From positions 341-64,340 of the forward strand of contig JBJEXX010000038.1 of NCBI GenBank assembly GCA_051886215.1: a stretch of DNA of 64,000 nucleotides, given 5' to 3'. This DNA is from Bacilli bacterium (GTDB lineage Bacteria > Bacillota_I > Bacilli_A > RF39 > UBA660). Of this stretch, positions 7,201 through 59,073 are shown piece by piece (position 1 is the stretch's first letter; each line of letters starts with the position of its first letter). A program made the translations under genes and the position numbers. Below the pieces are notes generated by a model that saw only the letters and a list, made by a program, of their open reading frames with translations, had not been told where the DNA came from and did no database searches.

Positions 7201-7862
7201 AGAGTATTTTTTATATAGTCTCCATCTCCAAATAATCCAGTAATATCATCATCACTAGATAAACCAAATGCACGAAGTAAAGTTGTTAAAGTAACCTTTC
7301 TAGTTCTATCAATTCTAACATATAATACATCTCTTGCATCAGTTTCAAACTCCAACCATGTACCACGAGTTGGAATTATTTGCGAAGTAATTAACTCACG
7401 ACCATTTTTATCAATTTCACGATTGAAATATACGCTTGGACTTCTTACTAATTGTGAAACAATAACACGTTCTGCTCCATTAATTACAAAAGTTCCAGCA
7501 TCAGTCATAACAGGTAAATCACCCAAGAATATTTCTTGTTCTTTTACTTCACCTGTCTCATGATTAAACAAACGTACTTCCACTTTCAAAGGAACTGCGT
7601 AAGTAGTCTCACGATCTTTACATTGTTTAATAGAATATCTTGGTTCATCAAAATGATAATCACCAAATTCTAAAGAAAATGTTCCTGAAAAATCTTCTAC
7701 TGGGAATAAGTCTTCAAATACCTCTTTAATACCTGTATCAATAAACCATTGATAACTTTTTTTCTGTATTTCAAGTAAATCCTTCAATTCATAAGTGTTT
7801 CTAATTCTAGAAAAACTTCTTCTTTCTCTGTGTTCACCGCATTTTATTATTTTATAAGCCAC
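4275..7862 (-). CDS. rpoB: DNA-directed RNA polymerase subunit beta
   Basis: 1195-aa ORF with conserved beta-subunit blocks ([25 protein letters not shown]). It lies directly upstream of rpoC and has an acidic C-terminal tail. Confidence 0.98.
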
Positions 7863-7957
7863 TTAATTCACCCCATTACATATATTTTAGCCAAAGAACA
7901 TATTAGTAAATATAATACATTGCCAATCTATATTATATACACAACATTCTCAACAAG

Positions 7958-8545
7958 TCAATATTTTTTACACTTTATTACAAAAAAACCTTTACTTTTA
8001 TCTAACACTTCTACATTATATATTTTTTTCAAGTCGGATATCATCGATTTAGCTCCCTGATCTTTCCTAATAACGATATATAATACACCATTCTCAATCA
8101 AATAATTATGAGCACTCATTACAATTTCATAAATAATTTTCTTGCCAGCACGTATCGGCGGATTTGTAATAATAGTATCATAAAAATCATCAACTTTTTC
8201 ATAACAGTCACTAACGAAAGCTTTACAATTCACATTATTCTCTTTTATATTCATCTGACACAAATGAATAGCACGTTTGTTAATGTCAATCATATCAACA
8301 TGACTATTAAATACTTTAGATATATAAATTCCAATAGGCCCATATCCACAACCAACATCTAAAACTTTATTTCCAATATTCTCGGTTGTTAAAACTTCAA
8401 GAAGAAATCTAGTTCCATAATCTAATTTATTTTTAGAAAAAACGCCATTGTCAGTAAAAAAAGTAAAATTCTTATCCAAAATATTAATACTATGCTTCAC
8501 TATATTACTTTTGATACTATTGTCATTATCAAAATATTGTCCCAT
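7958..8545 (-). CDS. ybxB: class I SAM-dependent RNA methyltransferase (RsmC/YbxB-like)
   Basis: SAM motif VLDVGCGYGPIG and NPPIRAGK motif. It occupies the same rplL-rpoB slot as B. subtilis ybxB. Confidence 0.85.
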   Translation of the reverse strand: MGQYFDNDNSIKSNIVKHSINILDKNFTFFTDNGVFSKNKLDYGTRFLLEVLTTENIGNKVLDVGCGYGPIGIYISKVFNSHVDMIDINKRAIHLCQMNIKENNVNCKAFVSDCYEKVDDFYDTIITNPPIRAGKKIIYEIVMSAHNYLIENGVLYIVIRKDQGAKSMISDLKKIYNVEVLDKSKGFFVIKCKKY

Positions 8546-8557
8546 TATATCACCTAA

Positions 8558-8597
8558 AGTAAAAAGACTATTATATAAAAAGTATATATAATAGTCT
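8558..8597 (-). terminator. intrinsic terminator after the 85-aa ORF
   Basis: Perfect 13-bp stem AGACTATTATATA / TATATAATAGTCT (8565-8577 / 8585-8597), followed by TTTTTAC on the minus-sense RNA. It sits immediately before the ybxB Shine-Dalgarno. Confidence 0.7.
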
Positions 8598-8689
8598 CCT
8601 TTCGTAAGTTTATTATACTAAAAAATAAAATAAAAGCAAATAAAAAATAAATATAAATTTATTTTTTACGTAAATAAAAGCTTAAATAA

Positions 8690-8947
8690 TCATTTTTTAT
8701 TCTTTTCCCAAATTTTTCTTATTAATTTTAAAGATAAAGTTGATAAAGTAAAACCAATTACAGGTACTAATGAACTCAACCAAACATTATCTATTTTTCT
8801 TATCAAATAAGAATACAACACAACTACAAAATAAGTTAAAATAGCTATACATAACTTTCTAAGTGTACTGGTCTCCCAAGCTTTATCCATTTCAACTCTT
8901 TTATTTCTTGCTTGGATATCTTTTATTTGTTTTTCTAAATCAGACAT
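8690..8947 (-). CDS. small two-TM membrane protein, unknown function
   Basis: 85-aa ORF with a GAGGTGG Shine-Dalgarno. An N-terminal coiled segment (DKAWETS) is followed by two hydrophobic helices. Confidence 0.55.
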   Translation of the reverse strand: MSDLEKQIKDIQARNKRVEMDKAWETSTLRKLCIAILTYFVVVLYSYLIRKIDNVWLSSLVPVIGFTLSTLSLKLIRKIWEKNKK

Positions 8948-8995
8948 ATTACCACCTCAACAATTAAATTATAACAAAATGCTATAAATAATTAA

Positions 8996-9018
8996 ACAAA
9001 AAAGGACCAAATTGGTCC
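8996..9018 (-). terminator. intrinsic terminator of rplL
   Basis: Minus-sense GGACCA-AUU-UGGUCC hairpin followed by UUUUUUG. Confidence 0.85.
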
Positions 9019-9032
9019 AATATAGCTTAATA

Positions 9033-43062: not shown

Positions 43063-43084
43063 AATTATTTCCCGGGAAATAATT
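43063..43084. promoter_or_regulatory. Noc-binding site (NBS) copy 1
   Basis: AATTATTTCCCGGGAAATAATT, with palindromy extending to 26 bp (43061-43086). The core 43066-43081, TATTTCCCGGGAAATA, equals the B. subtilis NBS consensus. It lies between the rsmI stop and the pth Shine-Dalgarno. Confidence 0.8.
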
Positions 43085-47346: not shown

Positions 47347-48996
47347 CTATTCATATTCAACAATATCTCTACCAAATATTATATCAGCTTGTACCTCATT
47401 TGCGCTACTGTTTTTTTTCTCTTCCCTCTCAATAATAGAGGAATCATCTTGTAATTTATAAGTATAACCTTCTTTCGTTTTCTTAATATACTCAGTTTTT
47501 TCTTTTTGCCATTGTTTCTTAGTAACAAAAGCAATATAAATTTCTATTCCTAACAGTTTTTCTATTGATTTTATTAATTCATCATACAATTGTAATGCAC
47601 GATTAACCAAAGACTCATACATAAAACTTAATATTACATATTTATCGCCGACCGCACATATTTCAGCATCAAGTAAAAAAGATACATTACTACCATAATT
47701 ACTATCTAAAACAAATTCATTTAATTTGCTCCACATATTCTTAAAATCATTCAATTTACTTTTAGAAGCTGTTGCAAAAGTATTATTTATAATAATATCA
47801 TTATGAACAATAACTGTGTTTGTTTTTTTATTTTCTGACTTTTCTACTTTATTATTATTATCTACTTTTTTCATAGAATCTTTATCAACAGAAACTTTGT
47901 TTTTATTTAACGAACTTGTATCTGTAAATATATTATTTTCATTTAATTTTTTTTCTTTAGTTGTATTATTAAATTCATCTTTGTTTAACATTTCTTTAGC
48001 AATCAATGCAATTGATATACCTCTAGGATTAGTAGAAGTTTTTAAAACATTACAAACTTCATTTAAGACCTCAATATAACGAACAATATTTCGTATCTTT
48101 TTTTTGTCTTCAATATCATTTATCAAACATTCTCGTAAATAATCAATTATTTGAGAAAAGAATACAGATAAATTTATTCCAGTAAGATATTTTTTATCAA
48201 TAATATTAACTACATTTTCAATATTATTTTCAAACAAATCACTTGTAAAATTTTCAATATCTTCATTACTAACAAAACCGCAAAGTTTATCAAAATCTTC
48301 AATTGTTATGTTGTTACCAAACAAACTCACCTTTTCTAGCATACCTATAGCGTCACGCATACCACCATTACAATATGTAGCGATTTTATATAAAATTTTA
48401 TCATCAACCATAATTTTTTCTTGCGACGCTATATACTTTAAATTACTAACAATATCTTCAATAGATATTTGTGTAAAATTATAACATTGACACCTAGATT
48501 TTATAGTTAACGGAACCTTCTGTGGATCTGTAGTTGCTAGAATAAAAATGATATGTTGTGGTGGTTCTTCTAAAGTTTTTAATAGAGCATTAAATGCACC
48601 AGTTGATAACATATGAACTTCATCAATAATATATACTTTATATTTTAAAGAAGAACAAGCTAATTTAATATTATTTCTTAATTCACGTATTTCATCCACT
48701 CCATTATTAGATGCCGCATCTATTTCAATGATATCCACAGCATTATTATTATTTATTTCTAAACAATTAGAACATTGTTCGCAGGAAACACCATCTTTCA
48801 TATTTAAACAATTAACAGTTTTAGCAAAAACCTTAGCAGTAGTTGTTTTTCCTGTTCCTCTTGGACCGCTGAATAAATAAGCATGTGATATTTTATTATT
48901 AATAATAGAGTTTTTTAAAATTTTTACAATAAAATTTTGTCCAACTATTCTCTCAAAAGTATCAGGACGATATTTTCTGTATAGAGATTGATACAT
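47347..48996 (-). CDS. dnaX: DNA polymerase III subunits gamma/tau
   Basis: MYQSLYRKYRP start at 48996, 6 nt after a GGGGGA Shine-Dalgarno (the track ORF starts 2 codons earlier). Walker A GPRGTGKTT, a zinc module (CxxCxxC) and DEVHML. Confidence 0.95.
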   Translation of the reverse strand: MYQSLYRKYRPDTFERIVGQNFIVKILKNSIINNKISHAYLFSGPRGTGKTTTAKVFAKTVNCLNMKDGVSCEQCSNCLEINNNNAVDIIEIDAASNNGVDEIRELRNNIKLACSSLKYKVYIIDEVHMLSTGAFNALLKTLEEPPQHIIFILATTDPQKVPLTIKSRCQCYNFTQISIEDIVSNLKYIASQEKIMVDDKILYKIATYCNGGMRDAIGMLEKVSLFGNNITIEDFDKLCGFVSNEDIENFTSDLFENNIENVVNIIDKKYLTGINLSVFFSQIIDYLRECLINDIEDKKKIRNIVRYIEVLNEVCNVLKTSTNPRGISIALIAKEMLNKDEFNNTTKEKKLNENNIFTDTSSLNKNKVSVDKDSMKKVDNNNKVEKSENKKTNTVIVHNDIIINNTFATASKSKLNDFKNMWSKLNEFVLDSNYGSNVSFLLDAEICAVGDKYVILSFMYESLVNRALQLYDELIKSIEKLLGIEIYIAFVTKKQWQKEKTEYIKKTKEGYTYKLQDDSSIIEREEKKNSSANEVQADIIFGRDIVEYE

Positions 48997-49019
48997 AAGC
49001 ATTCCCCCGTTCTATAAAA

Positions 49020-49048
49020 ATTATATCATTTTTATTTTTTAAAGTAAA
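49020..49048 (-). promoter_or_regulatory. candidate sigma-A promoter for dnaX
   Basis: TTTACT, 17-bp spacer, extended -10 TGaTATAAT on the minus strand. NBS copy 2 begins 8 bp upstream of the -35. Confidence 0.5.
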
Positions 49049-49058
49049 TTTTTAAAAT

Positions 49059-49080
49059 AATTATTTCCCGGGAAATAATT
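49059..49080. promoter_or_regulatory. Noc-binding site (NBS) copy 2
   Basis: AATTATTTCCCGGGAAATAATT, in a 26-bp palindrome at 49057-49082. The core is 49062-49077. It overlaps the tadA stop codon. Confidence 0.8.
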
Positions 49081-49498
49081 ATCTTCTAACAAAGAAAAAA
49101 GAATTTAATATTTTAGAGCATTTTTTACTTAAAAAATACTTTTTTATCCTTTTTTTTAATAATTTTTCACATATTTCATTATATAATATATCATTATTTC
49201 TAGTACCTATATATATTTTTTTTAAATTATACATAAATATTGTTCCAGAACACATAGGGCAAGGTATTAAAGTAGTATATAAAAATATAGAATTTAATTT
49301 ATTTTTATCTACTTTTTTCAAACATTCTATTTCAGCATGATAAAATTCATTTTTTTCTTTTGATTTTTGATTTTTTTCTTTTACCAAAATATTTTTTTTA
49401 TCAGTTATTATACTTCCTACTGGAACATTATTATTTAAAAAAGCAATTAAACTTTCTTTATATGCACTTTGTAAATAAAAAACATCATTATTTTTCAT
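49079..49498 (-). CDS. tadA: tRNA-specific adenosine deaminase (CDA fold)
   Basis: 139 aa with HAEIECL and PCPMCSG zinc-binding motifs. Its position next to dnaX matches B. subtilis yaaJ/tadA. Confidence 0.8.
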   Translation of the reverse strand: MKNNDVFYLQSAYKESLIAFLNNNVPVGSIITDKKNILVKEKNQKSKEKNEFYHAEIECLKKVDKNKLNSIFLYTTLIPCPMCSGTIFMYNLKKIYIGTRNNDILYNEICEKLLKKRIKKYFLSKKCSKILNSFFFVRR

Positions 49499-49511
49499 AT
49501 TTCACCTACTA

Positions 49512-49593
49512 TAAAAAAATGACGCACATAAATCAAATTATTAAGGCTGCTATTTTCCAATCCTGACCTGGTTCTAATTCTTTTTATTGCGTC
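49512..49593 (-). ncRNA. ffs: signal recognition particle RNA, minimal 4.5S type
   Basis: Minus-sense GACGCA...ACCAGGUCAGGAUUGGAAAAUAGCAGCCUUAA...UGCGUC. This matches the domain IV consensus ACCAGGUCAGGUCCGGAAGGAAGCAGCC, with a compensatory UCC/GGA to AUU/AAU change around the GGAA tetraloop. The terminal helix is GACGCA/UGCGUC, followed by a U7 tract. It has its own promoter. Confidence 0.85.
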
Positions 49594-49600
49594 GATATAT

Positions 49601-49629
49601 ATATTACTATAGAATATGTATTTAATCAA
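49601..49629 (-). promoter_or_regulatory. candidate sigma-A promoter for the SRP RNA gene
   Basis: TTGATT, 17-bp spacer, TAATAT on the minus strand. The predicted +1 falls at the G of the GACGCA terminal helix (49593). Confidence 0.6.
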
Positions 49630-49639
49630 GATTTTTTTA

Positions 49640-49655
49640 TGTTTCACGTGAAACA
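49640..49655. promoter_or_regulatory. parS site 1 (ParB/Spo0J centromere-like site)
   Basis: TGTTTCACGTGAAACA is a perfect palindromic parS consensus. The symmetry extends to 18 bp (49639-49656). It lies 10 bp upstream of the ffs -35. Confidence 0.88.
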
Positions 49656-49682
49656 TTGATTAATTTTTATTATTGTCTACTA

Positions 49683-49698
49683 CGTTTCACGTGAAACA
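49683..49698. promoter_or_regulatory. parS site 2
   Basis: CGTTTCACGTGAAACA matches the parS consensus at 15/16 positions, differing only at the outermost base. Confidence 0.85.
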
Positions 49699-49710: not shown

Positions 49711-49744
49711 CAAATAAAAATGAATGTTTCACGTGAAACATTCA
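49711..49744 (-). terminator. intrinsic terminator of gyrA formed by parS site 3
   Basis: Minus-sense UGAAUGUUUCACGUGAAACAUUCA (24-nt palindrome, 49721-49744) starts immediately after the gyrA TAA stop. It is followed by UUUUUAUUUG. Confidence 0.7.
49725..49740. promoter_or_regulatory. parS site 3
   Basis: TGTTTCACGTGAAACA is a perfect consensus, embedded in the 24-bp palindrome TGAATGTTTCACGTGAAACATTCA. Confidence 0.88.
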
Positions 49745-52186
49745 TTATTCTATAGGTGTTTCTTCTTCTGTTTCTATAACTTTAACTTTTGTTACAGAAG
49801 AAACCATTTGATTATCTTTCAAATTTATTAATCTTACACCTTGTGTAGCCCTTTTTAATGTAGATACCTGTTGTAAACTAATTCTTATAATAATACCACT
49901 ATTAGTTATAATCATAATATCATCATTATCATCAACACATTGTAATGTAACCATTTTTCCATTTTTATCGGTAATATTTAGGGCTTTTACACCTTTACTT
50001 CCTCTATGTGTTAATCTAAATTCATTAATTTCTGTCTTTTTACCATAACCTTTTTCAGTTACAATTAAAACTTTAGCATTTTCATTACTAACAACTTCCA
50101 TTCCAACAACATTATCTGTATTAATATTAAAGTCGATTCCTTTTACACCAGAAGCTGTTCTACCCATATTTCTTATTTCTGTTTCATTAAACCTAACCAT
50201 TCTACCATTAGTAGCACCTATTATAATCTCATCAGATCCACTTGAAGCCTTAACAGAAATTAGTTCATCATCTTCTCTCAAGGTAATTGCAATTTTACCA
50301 CTTGTTCTAATATTATCAAATTCCGCTATAGAAGTTCTCTTTACTACACCTTTTTTAGTACAGAATACAAAATAATTTTTATTATCATCTTTTGATCCAG
50401 TAATAACAGTAGTTATTTTTTCATCTTTATCTAAAGACAATAAATTAACAATAGGTAAACCTTTAGATTGTCTACTATATTCAGGTACCTTATAACCCTT
50501 AATTCTATAAACTCTACCTTTATTACTAAAGAAGTATGCAAAATCATGAGTTTTCATAGATATTAAATGTTCTACATAATCTTCTTCATTTGTAGACATT
50601 CCTTTAATACCAACACCACCACGATTTTGAGATTTAAATGTATTCTCCACAACTCTCTTAATGTAACCATTATGTGTTAATGTTAAAATAACATTTTCAA
50701 CAGGTATTAAAGACTCATCTTCTATATATTCAATAGCCGTCATATCAATATTTGTTCGACGTTCATCACCGAACTTTTGTTTTATTTCTAATAATTCTTT
50801 TTTAATTACTGCTAAAACATTTGCGTCACTTGATAAGATAGTCTTTAATTCATCAATTAATTTAAGCAATTCATCAAGTTCATTTTCTATTTTTTCTCTT
50901 TCTAATCCAGTTAAGCGACGTAATCTCATTTCTAAAATTGCGTTTGCTTGGGCTTCTGATAATTTAAAATTATTCATTAAACCACTTCTGGCTTCGTCAT
51001 CTGATTTAGAACCACGAATTAATTTAATAACAGCGTCAATATTATCTAAAGCAATCTTTAATCCTTCTAATATGTGTACTCTTTTTTCAGCAACATCTAA
51101 ATCAAACTTAGTTCTTCTTATTATAACTTCTTTTTGATAATCGATATATTTTACGATTATATCTTTTAAACATAACGTTTTTGGAACACCTTGATCTAAC
51201 ATTAAAAATATTATTCCATAACTAGTTTGTAAAGAAGTATGTTTATATAACTTATTAAGAACAACTTGAGCATTTGCATCTTTTTTTAGAGTGATAGTAA
51301 TTTTAATACCATCTTTCAAATCAGAATGATAATCTGCAATACCCTCAATCGTCTTATTATGAACAAGTTCGGCAACTTTATTTTTTAATTCCAATGTATT
51401 TACACCATATGGAACTTCATCAATTATTATATATTGTCTACCATTTTTTTCCTCTATAGAAGCTTTACTTCTAATAGTAATAGAACCACGACCAGTCTCA
51501 TAAGCCTTTCTAATTCCACTATTACCCAATATACTAGCACCTGTTGGAAAATCTGGACCTTTTATATATTCCATTAATCCATCTAAATCAATTTCTGGAT
51601 TATCTATGTATGCAACGCATCCATCAATTACTTCTCCTAAATTATGAGGAGGAATATTAGTAGCCATACCAACCGCTATACCAGTAGTTCCATTTACTAA
51701 AATATTAGGAAAACGTGAAGGTAAAACTTCTGGTTCTTTTTCACTTTCATCAAAATTAGGTGTAAAATCAACTGTATTTTTATTTATATTTCTTAATAAT
51801 TCTAAAGATATTTTTGAAAGACGAGATTCTGTATAACGCATTGCGGCAGCACCATATCCTTCAATATTACCAAAATTACCATGTCCATCAACAAGCATAT
51901 ATCTATAAGAAAAATCTTGTGCCATTCTAACCATAGCTTCATATATACTAGAATCACCATGTGGATGATATTTACCCATTACATCTCCGACAATTCTAGC
52001 ACTTTTTTTATGAGGTTTATCAGGGGTATATCCAGATTCATACATAGAATATAAAATTCTACGATGAACAGGTTTTAATCCATCTCTTAAATCTGGAAGA
52101 GCACGTGCTACTATAACACTCATTGAATATTCCAAAAAGGAATCTTGTACTTCTTTTACTATATTATTTTTTTCTAGTCTATCCAT
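49745..52186 (-). CDS. gyrA: DNA gyrase subunit A
   Basis: 813 aa with the active-site region AAMRYTE, a QRDR-like [13 protein letters not shown] and a C-terminal beta-pinwheel. Confidence 0.98.
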
Positions 52187-55321: not shown

Positions 55322-55359
55322 AAATAAAAAAGGTCAAAAATTTAACATTTTTGCCTTTT
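55322..55359 (-). terminator. intrinsic terminator after the comK-like gene
   Basis: Minus-sense AAAGGCAAAAAU-GUUAA-AUUUUUGACCUUU hairpin (one bulge) containing the stop codon, followed by UUUAUUUG. Confidence 0.7.
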
Positions 55360-55788
55360 TCTTAATAGGGATTCTAGTCTAGTCGCACGAAATATTTGAT
55401 TTTCAATTATTCTAAATGAAGAAGGGACTACTATTTTCTTATTATTTGAAAAATATATTATTGTTTTTAGGGATTTTTTTTCTATTTTTTCTATATTATT
55501 TAGTGATAACCATATACAAGAATCGAGGAAGGGTGATTCGGTTGGGAAAAAAATTAATGATTTACTTTCTTCAATTACTATAGGTAGTTTATAACTAGCT
55601 CCTAAAATATGTTTGCTACCTAATCTTCTACCTTCGTATGTACTCCCATAATACATACAACTATTATCCATTATTTCTGTGCAACTACCATTATATTCAA
55701 AAGTTGATTCTTTTTCATATACCATAACACTATTTTCATTTATTGGAACTAATGCTAAAGTATCTTCTGTAATTTCGTAAGTGTCCAT
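55342..55788 (-). CDS. comK: ComK-family transcription factor
   Basis: 148 aa. Aligns by eye along the ComK core of B. subtilis (YEI...TLALVP, SC.YYGSTYEGRR, YKLPIVIEES, LIFFPTESP, W.S, ENQIFRA). GGGGGA Shine-Dalgarno. Confidence 0.78.
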   Translation of the reverse strand: MDTYEITEDTLALVPINENSVMVYEKESTFEYNGSCTEIMDNSCMYYGSTYEGRRLGSKHILGASYKLPIVIEESKSLIFFPTESPFLDSCIWLSLNNIEKIEKKSLKTIIYFSNNKKIVVPSSFRIIENQIFRATRLESLLRKRQKC

Positions 55789-58548: not shown

Positions 58549-58891
58549 TTCCCCACCTGAATTTATAAGATTAATAACAATTTTATTGTAAAATAATTTT
58601 TCTAAAAAATAAAGCTATTTTCTAAAAAATATTGTTATAAACAACTTATTAACAAGGTTATCAACAACTATTTTCTATGAAATATAAGAAAAAAACTAAC
58701 TTATCAACAAATTTGTTTACTTTATATAATAAACAAGGTTAATAAAATTATCAACATAATTGTGAAAAATGTTAATAACTTTTTAAAGTCATAATATATA
58801 TATAAATAAAAATAATGTTTATTAACAATAAGTGTGAATAAATAAAAAAACAAAAAAAGTTATTGTTAATAATTTTTTTTTTGCTAATTTG
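58549..58891. other. oriC, dnaA-upstream DnaA-box cluster
   Basis: TTATCAACA occurs three times (58658-58666, 58701-58709, 58748-58756). TTATTCACA is on the opposite strand (58833-58841). TTATTAACA/TTATAAACA variants lie at 58635, 58646, 58770, 58819 and 58864. An (AT)n/A-rich tract spans 58793-58817. The gene-strand switch occurs here. Confidence 0.8.
58598..58631. repeat. two 14-bp direct repeats TTTTCTAAAAAATA, 20 bp apart, within oriC
   Basis: Identical copies at 58598-58611 and 58618-58631, between the dnaA start and the first DnaA boxes. Confidence 0.7.
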
Positions 58892-58920
58892 TTGACAAAA
58901 TAATATAATTTTATTACAAT
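58892..58920 (+). promoter_or_regulatory. candidate sigma-A promoter for rpmH-rnpA
   Basis: TTGACA, 17-bp spacer, TACAAT, preceded by a T10 tract (58873-58882) in the UP-element position. Confidence 0.6.
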
Positions 58921-58949
58921 AAATGAGATTTATGTCTGGAGGTGGAATT

Positions 58950-59072
58950 ATGAAAAGACCTTATCAACCAAATAATAGAAAAAAATCAAAAAAGATGGGC
59001 TTTTTTGCAAGAATGAAAAATAAAATTGTTGCAAGACGCCGTAGAAAAGGACGCAAAAGGTTATCTAAATAA
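58950..59072 (+). CDS. rpmH: 50S ribosomal protein L34
   Basis: Not in the ORF track because it is too short. Sequence [40 protein letters not shown] (40 aa), with a GGAGGTGG Shine-Dalgarno. Upstream of rnpA. Confidence 0.92.
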
Positions 59073-59073
59073 T

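Follow-up and report, generated by a model that had tools for sequence, protein, structure and literature searches.

Candidate loading sites for ParB and a derived Noc protein in one origin-proximal region of an uncultured pig-gut Bacilli bacterium

The textbook case of a duplicated DNA-binding protein with a division of labor between the copies is that of ParB and Noc, the first acting at the centromere and the second across the whole chromosome. In the ParABS system of Firmicutes, represented by Spo0J/ParB-parS and Soj/ParA of B. subtilis, the parS sites are clustered and origin-proximal, with several of them spread over the origin domain. In the Noc-NBS system of B. subtilis and S. aureus, the Noc-binding sites (NBS) are scattered over the chromosome except near ter (PMC7383237, PMC8429893, PMC4331003). 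CTP-bound Noc leaves its NBS and slides, and in B. subtilis a 10-residue N-terminal amphipathic helix of the protein is required for membrane binding and nucleoid occlusion (PMC8429893). A single lysine at position 179 or 184 is enough for NBS preference (PMC7383237). Here we describe a locus at which the two site types lie close together and the cognate Noc is altered. The reading that we favor, with a probability of roughly 70%, is that the NBS at 49063 and three parS sites serve as true loading sites for a pair of paralogous CTP clamps, ParB/Spo0J and a derived Noc, within one origin-proximal region.

The DNA analyzed, a stretch of 64,000 nucleotides called the window below, comes from an uncultured pig-gut bacterium with an assembly of 1.19 Mb in 120 contigs (24.8% GC, 83% complete). 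Every gene left of ~58.6 kb is on the minus strand, and to the right of 59.1 kb every gene is on the plus strand. The minus-side order is dnaA, dnaN, recF, gyrB, gyrA, three parS sites, ffs, a tadA-like gene, an NBS and dnaX, continuing with ybaB, recR, holB, ricT, a methyltransferase gene, rsmI, an NBS, pth and mfd; on the plus side it is rnpA, yidC, jag, an NBS, mnmE, an NBS and mnmG. Since DnaA-box-like nonamers cluster in the dnaA-rnpA spacer, oriC probably lies at ~58.7 kb, which would put the parS array ~9 kb away. Between recF and dnaN is a 148-aa ORF (55342-55788, minus strand), matched by no NCBIfam model, whose position is kept in most relatives examined at 38-50% identity. The sites and the genes around them are as follows.

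43063-43084, no strand: NBS copy 1, between rsmI and pth, immediately upstream of the pth ribosome-binding site and without a promoter
47347-49002, minus strand: dnaX (DNA polymerase III gamma/tau), profile match of 478 bits
49059-49080, no strand: NBS copy 2, the 22-bp palindrome AATTATTTCCCGGGAAATAATT with its core at 49063-49076, overlapping the tadA stop codon, with the dnaX -35 lying 10 bp downstream
49079-49498, minus strand: tadA-like deaminase ORF, weak TadA match (46.9 bits against a cut-off of 150)
49507-49603, minus strand: ffs, small SRP RNA (Rfam RF00169, 57.9 bits, match of 97 nt)
49640-49655, no strand: parS site 1, TGTTTCACGTGAAACA, a perfect palindrome of 16 bp, with the predicted ffs -35 lying 10 bp downstream
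49683-49698, no strand: parS site 2, CGTTTCACGTGAAACA, 15/16, from the pattern search
49725-49740, no strand: parS site 3, TGTTTCACGTGAAACA, perfect, within a 28-bp palindrome adjoining the gyrA stop codon
49745-52186, minus strand: gyrA, marking the conserved slot gyrA-(sites)-ffs-tadA-(sites)-dnaX
58549-59126, no strand: probable oriC, the dnaA-rnpA spacer, with the gene-orientation switch and a DnaA-box-like cluster (TTATCAACA three times, TTATTCACA once)
61036-61057, no strand: NBS copy 3, in the jag-mnmE spacer, its core ending 6 bp upstream of TTGAAA-17-TATAAT (mnmE promoter)
62475-62496, no strand: NBS copy 4, between mnmE and mnmG, immediately upstream of the mnmG ribosome-binding site and without a promoter

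The parS sites follow the same 16-bp consensus as those of other Firmicutes, TGTTNCACGTGAAACA, which at no more than two mismatches matched three times in the window, against 0.01 matches expected in shuffled sequence. The center-to-center spacings are 43 and 42 bp. Sequences flanking the sites are dissimilar (6-15 of 27 positions alike), which indicates that the sites are individually maintained and do not stem from a recent duplication. parS site 3 is the center of a 28-bp perfect palindrome, AATGAATGTTTCACGTGAAACATTCATT (49719-49746, minus strand), which starts 1 nt past the gyrA stop codon and is followed by a T-rich run; because this is the sole terminator-like match in the region, parS site 3 may also act as the terminator hairpin of gyrA. 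Compared with ParABS of other Firmicutes, the sites form one small cluster in the conserved gyrA-ffs-tadA-dnaX slot rather than several across the origin domain, and sites of a second ParB-family protein lie beside or between parS.

The NBS consensus, ATTTCCCGGGAAAT, is identical to that of the described Noc-NBS system. Four exact copies, at 43067, 49063, 61040 and 62479, occur in the window against 0.10 expected, and all four are embedded in the identical 22-bp palindrome. These are all the NBS of the assembly, and each lies within 16 kb of the probable oriC. A search of the 1.19-Mb assembly (83% complete) at no more than one mismatch found no further parS or NBS; the missing part may hold extra sites, but a closed relative described below argues against many. 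CCCGGG occurs six times in the assembly, and four of these are the NBS copies with their shared 22-bp context. An origin of CCCGGG as a relic of restriction avoidance was considered and rejected, given six occurrences against ~4 hand-estimated from base composition and the identical context of four of the six.

NBS copy 2 lies 560 bp from parS site 1 edge to edge (577 bp center to center), as a preliminary description of the locus had stated, and the three other NBS are 6-13 kb from parS. The site types are not interleaved in this genome. The same description had placed only tadA and the SRP RNA gene in between, and this agrees with the Rfam match for ffs and the weak match for the tadA-like ORF. 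The latter shows 27-43% identity among relatives, and its assignment as a tRNA adenosine deaminase is tentative. As for the 73 nt that had been given for the SRP RNA, the figure is close to the ~75-nt span of the closing helix (CGACGCA...TGCGTCA, 49594-49520), whereas the Rfam match covers 97 nt.

Both cognate proteins that the preliminary description presupposed are encoded, with intact CTP-clamp motifs. The contig C79 carries noc-parA-parB, with ParB at 7365-8249 and ParA at 8236-9024. Its head overlaps the tail of the window's own contig, C38, in the end of rsmG and the noc promoter, which places noc-parA-parB just past the right end of the window and makes noc the neighbor of both rsmG and parAB; the order rsmG-noc-parA-parB is present in L105 and is that of ParABS loci in Firmicutes. 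The overlapping ends (C38 65331-65574 and C79 10410-10602) have ~90 bp in common, comprising the rsmG end and the noc promoter TTGTCA-17-TATAAT, and then diverge. This divergence indicates an assembly fork, reflecting strain heterogeneity or an rsmG-noc insertion in part of the population. A third ParB-N-domain protein of ~318 aa with partial matches (C86 180-1157, minus strand) is encoded on a 2.3-kb contig together with two lysine/glutamate-rich ORFs, and is probably from a phage or plasmid.

ParB is ordinary. It contains R173/G201-type residues (GKSR...MGHAR), the motifs GERRVKA and ENLQR and the N-terminal KRRALGRGLEELF, it adjoins ParA, and it resembles the ParB of other Firmicutes in its parS-type specificity residues, CTP-clamp motifs and ParA-stimulating N-terminal peptide. 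With a parS consensus above chance level, an origin-proximal position and genes for cognate ParB and ParA, the locus has the elements of a ParABS system. The Noc paralogue, of 428 aa, reads GKSQ..ANK..ERHAR, corresponding to Q173, K179 and R201 as in described Noc proteins, with T at position 184 (numbering after Jalal et al. 2020). With three of the four specificity residues in place it is predicted to bind NBS. It shares the CTP-clamp motifs GERRxxA and ENLQR with ParB, has an intact CTP-binding N-terminal domain, and aligns best to solved Noc structures (200 bits, compared to 175 for Spo0J).

The same protein departs from described Noc in other respects. Its score against NCBIfam TIGR04285 is 283 bits, below the cut-off of 315. 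The N-terminus, MDNEKLNDATPNF..., does not form an amphipathic membrane-targeting sequence, and when the protein is aligned with 7ol9, the structure of B. subtilis Noc, its residue 14 corresponds to residue 22 of the solved chain, leaving no counterpart of the stretch that bears the 10-aa membrane-targeting helix; the absence of a membrane element is judged here at the Noc N-terminus alone. Before the C-terminal domain there is instead an insert of ~190 low-complexity, acidic residues. Thus the NBS palindrome, three of four specificity residues and the proximity of noc to rsmG and parAB are as in Noc-NBS systems, while the membrane-targeting sequence, the chromosome-wide scatter of sites and a TIGR04285 score above cut-off are absent. 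The preliminary description had assumed a canonical Noc. Lacking a membrane-targeting peptide and having origin-restricted sites, this Noc does not fit the canonical nucleoid-occlusion picture.

From public genomes, 80 Noc orthologues of the clade were fetched; the genomes are labeled uncultured Bacilli or Tenericutes, Candidatus Scybalousia and Candidatus Faecimonas, the last of which was placed in the order RF39 by its describers. The residues Q/K/R (173/179/201) are kept in all 80, and lengths range from 322 to 519 aa. Position 184 is S, T or A, rarely V, L or E, rather than K. In the same 80 proteins the motif PNRFQPR is preceded by 14-30 (nearly always 14-21) polar or acidic residues. Family members score 265-288 bits against TIGR04285 and match only model positions 1 to ~200-248. 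The insert, a trait of all 80, varies in length, and an alignment of 81 orthologues showed almost no conservation in it when a conserved motif or a relocated amphipathic helix was sought.

By contrast, the Noc of several sister families is canonical, scoring above 315 bits at 253-306 aa (one 681-aa open frame apart), with F-rich N-termini, such as MFNIFSR or MFSFFSK, similar to the membrane peptide of B. subtilis. In closed sister-family genomes NBS-like sites occur all around the chromosome. The comparison with organisms that have a canonical Noc is drawn from these sister families and the literature. Because the sister families keep a canonical Noc with scattered NBS-like sites, the anchor-less, insert-bearing Noc with centromere-restricted sites is, on this sequence comparison, a derived state of the family. 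For the same reasons, namely a canonical Noc, an N-terminus resembling the membrane-targeting sequence and scattered sites in the sister families, we considered it unlikely that this Noc is an ancestral ParB-Noc intermediate.

The arrangement of sites was compared in relatives whose site regions were fetched (genomes G001, G002, G004-G018, G044 and G094, and those behind L100, L094 and L078). parS occupies the gyrA-ffs-tadA-dnaX slot in every one of these family genomes, and in most of them NBS are interleaved with parS in the same slot. The NBS are few, four here and 1-13 in relatives, and are confined around parS and oriC, unlike those of the described Noc-NBS system. Across 18 family genomes, 51 NBS are on the same contig as a parS site; none is more than 17 kb away from it, and 27 of them are within 700 bp; the window's 577-bp distance is near the middle of this range. 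In G013 a parS-NBS-parS series fits within 63 bp, and in G014 NBS stand at 2-bp gaps from parS at both ends of the array, an arrangement in which NBS flank parS that is also seen in G011. Strictly alternating NBS/parS tandem arrays of 5-13 units are found in G010, G044 and G094, and strict 1:1 alternation inside arrays in these three and G562. The tandem units, of 66-115 bp, differ between genera, which suggests repeated independent co-amplification. The closed circular chromosome OZ006981.1 (1.31 Mb) contains all 13 of its exact NBS and 12 parS-like sites in one alternating ~1-kb array with an 83-bp period, located in the tadA-dnaX spacer ~10 kb from oriC; outside this array no further sites above chance level were detected.

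Tight pairs were then counted with a pattern consisting of an NBS core, 3-33 nt and a parS core, and the reversed pattern served as control. In the family, 47 of 201 genera have such pairs and the reversed control gave 0; outside it, the pairs were absent from all 351 genomes sampled from 30 other families and from all 384 genomes of a second sample (other families of the same class only). A search for transcript evidence brought up public runs from pig gut, manure and digesters that were either DNA metagenomes or contig sets of unrecorded kind, and these gave no information on transcription starts. In one of the runs (X25, kind not recorded) there are contigs on which the NBS palindrome and a parS palindrome stand only 7-38 unrelated nt apart, matching the window at 49059-49080, 49638-49658 and 49715-49742. 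The sampled community thus seems to include related strains whose sites are tightly paired. Exact NBS also occur inside coding sequences of relatives, within dnaX, at about codon 360 in most (L009 5698, L011 7778, L020 13608, L108 10866), and within rsmI at about codon 198 (L004 3415, L006 4347, L007 2722, L017 6531). Their conserved codon positions imply that NBS are also maintained within genes near the origin. No NBS was found upstream of noc in the present genome, where it could indicate autoregulation; in G009 an NBS variant, ATTTCCTGGGAAAT (L021 18257-18270), stands immediately upstream of the noc promoter and suggests Noc autoregulation in some genera.

We propose from these comparisons that ParB and Noc clamps would nucleate side by side, all four NBS and the three parS sites forming one loading region ~9 kb from oriC, and that both clamps would slide over the same few kilobases to give one mixed nucleoprotein complex at the origin region. 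Having lost the N-terminal peptide and gained a long disordered insert, the Noc of this clade, which consists of gut bacteria with small genomes (RF39-type by their record titles), would not be a chromosome-wide membrane-tethering division inhibitor. It would have a new, origin-restricted role in which co-occupancy by two clamps is the normal state. The overlapping ParB and Noc territories envisaged in the preliminary description are in keeping with the relatives, which pack the site types closer still, with 2-bp gaps and alternating arrays. The mutual exclusion that it raised is less so, as shared territory appears to be a selected state rather than a conflict. The interleaving in relatives, its restriction to the clade and the single alternating array make the overlap of the clamps look designed and not accidental, although tandem amplification of a unit carrying both sites can give alternation without selection on each copy. 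The present genome appears to be a weak, split form (three parS, ffs, tadA, NBS) of a clade-wide composite centromere, with ParB-Noc coupling apparently looser than in its relatives.

A more elaborate version of this proposal is a bipartite centromere, in which ParB and the anchor-less Noc form one mixed CTP-clamp complex, the Noc insert recruits a division, sporulation or condensation partner to the origin while Noc no longer tethers bulk DNA to the membrane, and the complex covers the ffs, dnaX and mnmE promoters and may tune them. We put it forward tentatively, as an attractive possibility that is more probably wrong than right in its full form. Among known systems, plasmid centromeres built of tandem repeats, such as sopC of F and parS/parC arrays, are resembled by the 66-115-bp units of the relatives in that these carry predicted protein-binding palindromes. 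Those plasmid arrays bind one protein, whereas the relatives' units carry candidate sites for two paralogues; the window's version differs further in that it is not a tandem repeat, the flanks of its parS sites being unrelated.

The proximity of the sites could instead be a coincidence of packing, if origin-proximal sites survive only in the few short spacers of a dense 25%-GC genome and ParB and Noc are not coupled at all. All sites of the window do lie in short spacers, NBS copies 1 and 4 have no adjoining promoter, and in five relatives (G002, G005, G008, G009 and G018) the nearest NBS is 1.7-16 kb from parS. Dense packing does not, however, explain why 2-33-bp pairs are confined to the family when other families also have both proteins, nor a closed genome with every site in one alternating array, nor the genus-specific repeat units that point to repeated independent co-amplification. 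We therefore consider uncoupled packing improbable as an account of the sites, although short spacers may well account for where they stand relative to promoters. The two predicted promoters next to NBS copy 2 and parS site 1 are the following.

49020-49048, minus strand: predicted dnaX promoter, TTTACT-17-TGaTATAAT, the best-scoring match on the correct strand (10/12 plus TG)
49601-49629, minus strand: predicted ffs promoter, TTGATT-17-TAATAT (8/12), below the scan threshold and read directly from the sequence

The ffs prediction puts the transcription start at ~49594, where the SRP helix begins, and for dnaX a start at ~49014 is predicted. A generic promoter scan gave no enrichment (12 promoter-like matches compared to 9.3 +/- 3.4 in shuffles), and with ffs at only 8/12 the promoter calls are based on conservation across genera. 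Eight genera share the ffs -35, TTGAnn, at a constant distance from the RNA 5' end, and the extended -10 of dnaX, TGnTATAAT, is conserved among the four genera with an NBS in the tadA-dnaX spacer. Both promoters are thus probably real, and a bound clamp would be expected to occupy their -40 to -65 region. The gap between parS site 1 and the ffs -35 is exactly 10 bp, the value first reported. For dnaX the reported promoter stands, but the NBS copy 2 palindrome ends 10 bp, not 8 bp, from the -35, and the 14-bp core 14 bp from it.

This geometry recalls ParB-family regulators such as KorB of RK2, and the effects of ParB near parS, where CTP-clamp palindromes likewise lie a few bp upstream of a -35. 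On such a view ParB and Noc, bound in the UP-element position, would chiefly regulate ffs, dnaX and mnmE, and segregation would be secondary. Several relatives share the arrangement. Of the eight genera, four have their nearest site, a parS in three cases and an NBS in the other, 8-11 bp upstream of the ffs -35, and a fifth has it at 20 bp; the dnaX -35 is preceded at 14 bp by the NBS core in G000 and G013, and the core overlaps the -35 position in G012 and is ~50 bp away in the remaining genus; and NBS copy 3 stands 6 bp upstream of a good mnmE promoter. However, G010 and G015 have no site near ffs and in G007 it is far off, many relatives have no site in the tadA-dnaX spacer or have tadA and dnaX overlapping, arrays of 9-13 units go far beyond what an operator needs, and the promoter-like matches do not exceed those in shuffles. 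An operator function as the main purpose is consequently doubtful, about as unlikely as uncoupled packing. Two of the four window NBS have no promoter, adjacency is not conserved across the clade, and, in contrast to the established regulators, the arrangement here is known from sequence. The UP-element placement first claimed for the sites is accordingly right in its geometry and partly conserved across genera, but it is not universal, NBS copies 1 and 4 leaving no room for a promoter, and the abutment may be mostly a packing effect of very short spacers. It does not appear to be a defining property of the sites. On the composite loading region that we favor, promoter adjacency would arise mainly because no other spacers are free to take the sites, and transcription of ffs, dnaX or mnmE would be affected secondarily at most.

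Least probable, by a little, is a boundary function, in which NBS-bound Noc would be a roadblock to sliding ParB clamps (or ParB to those of Noc) and would keep them confined, NBS thus delimiting the ParB zone: DNA-bound proteins do block ParB sliding, NBS flank both ends of the parS array in G014 and G011, and in the window the parS array and oriC each have NBS to either side, but a boundary has no need of the 1:1 alternation seen inside arrays (G562, G044, G010, G094), and CTP-bound Noc itself leaves its site and slides (PMC8429893).

Each of the three readings last discussed fits part of the data, but none explains the 1:1 alternating arrays or the restriction to the clade with the derived Noc, which leaves a composite loading region for ParB and Noc as the simplest interpretation. 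In the literature on Noc, NBS and parS we found canonical work, and found no description of mixed arrays, of an anchor-less Noc or of a mixed two-protein "centromere" with interleaved arrays, of which the window would be a spread-out version. In a large clade of gut bacteria, two site types that are kept apart in the textbook systems appear to have been reunited at one locus, and the membrane anchor of Noc to have been removed. Annotation by homology as a "nucleoid occlusion protein" would then mislabel the function of this protein in hundreds of species. The clade would offer a natural system for asking whether two paralogous CTP clamps can share DNA, what Noc does without membrane binding, and how loading sites coexist with the strong promoters of essential genes.
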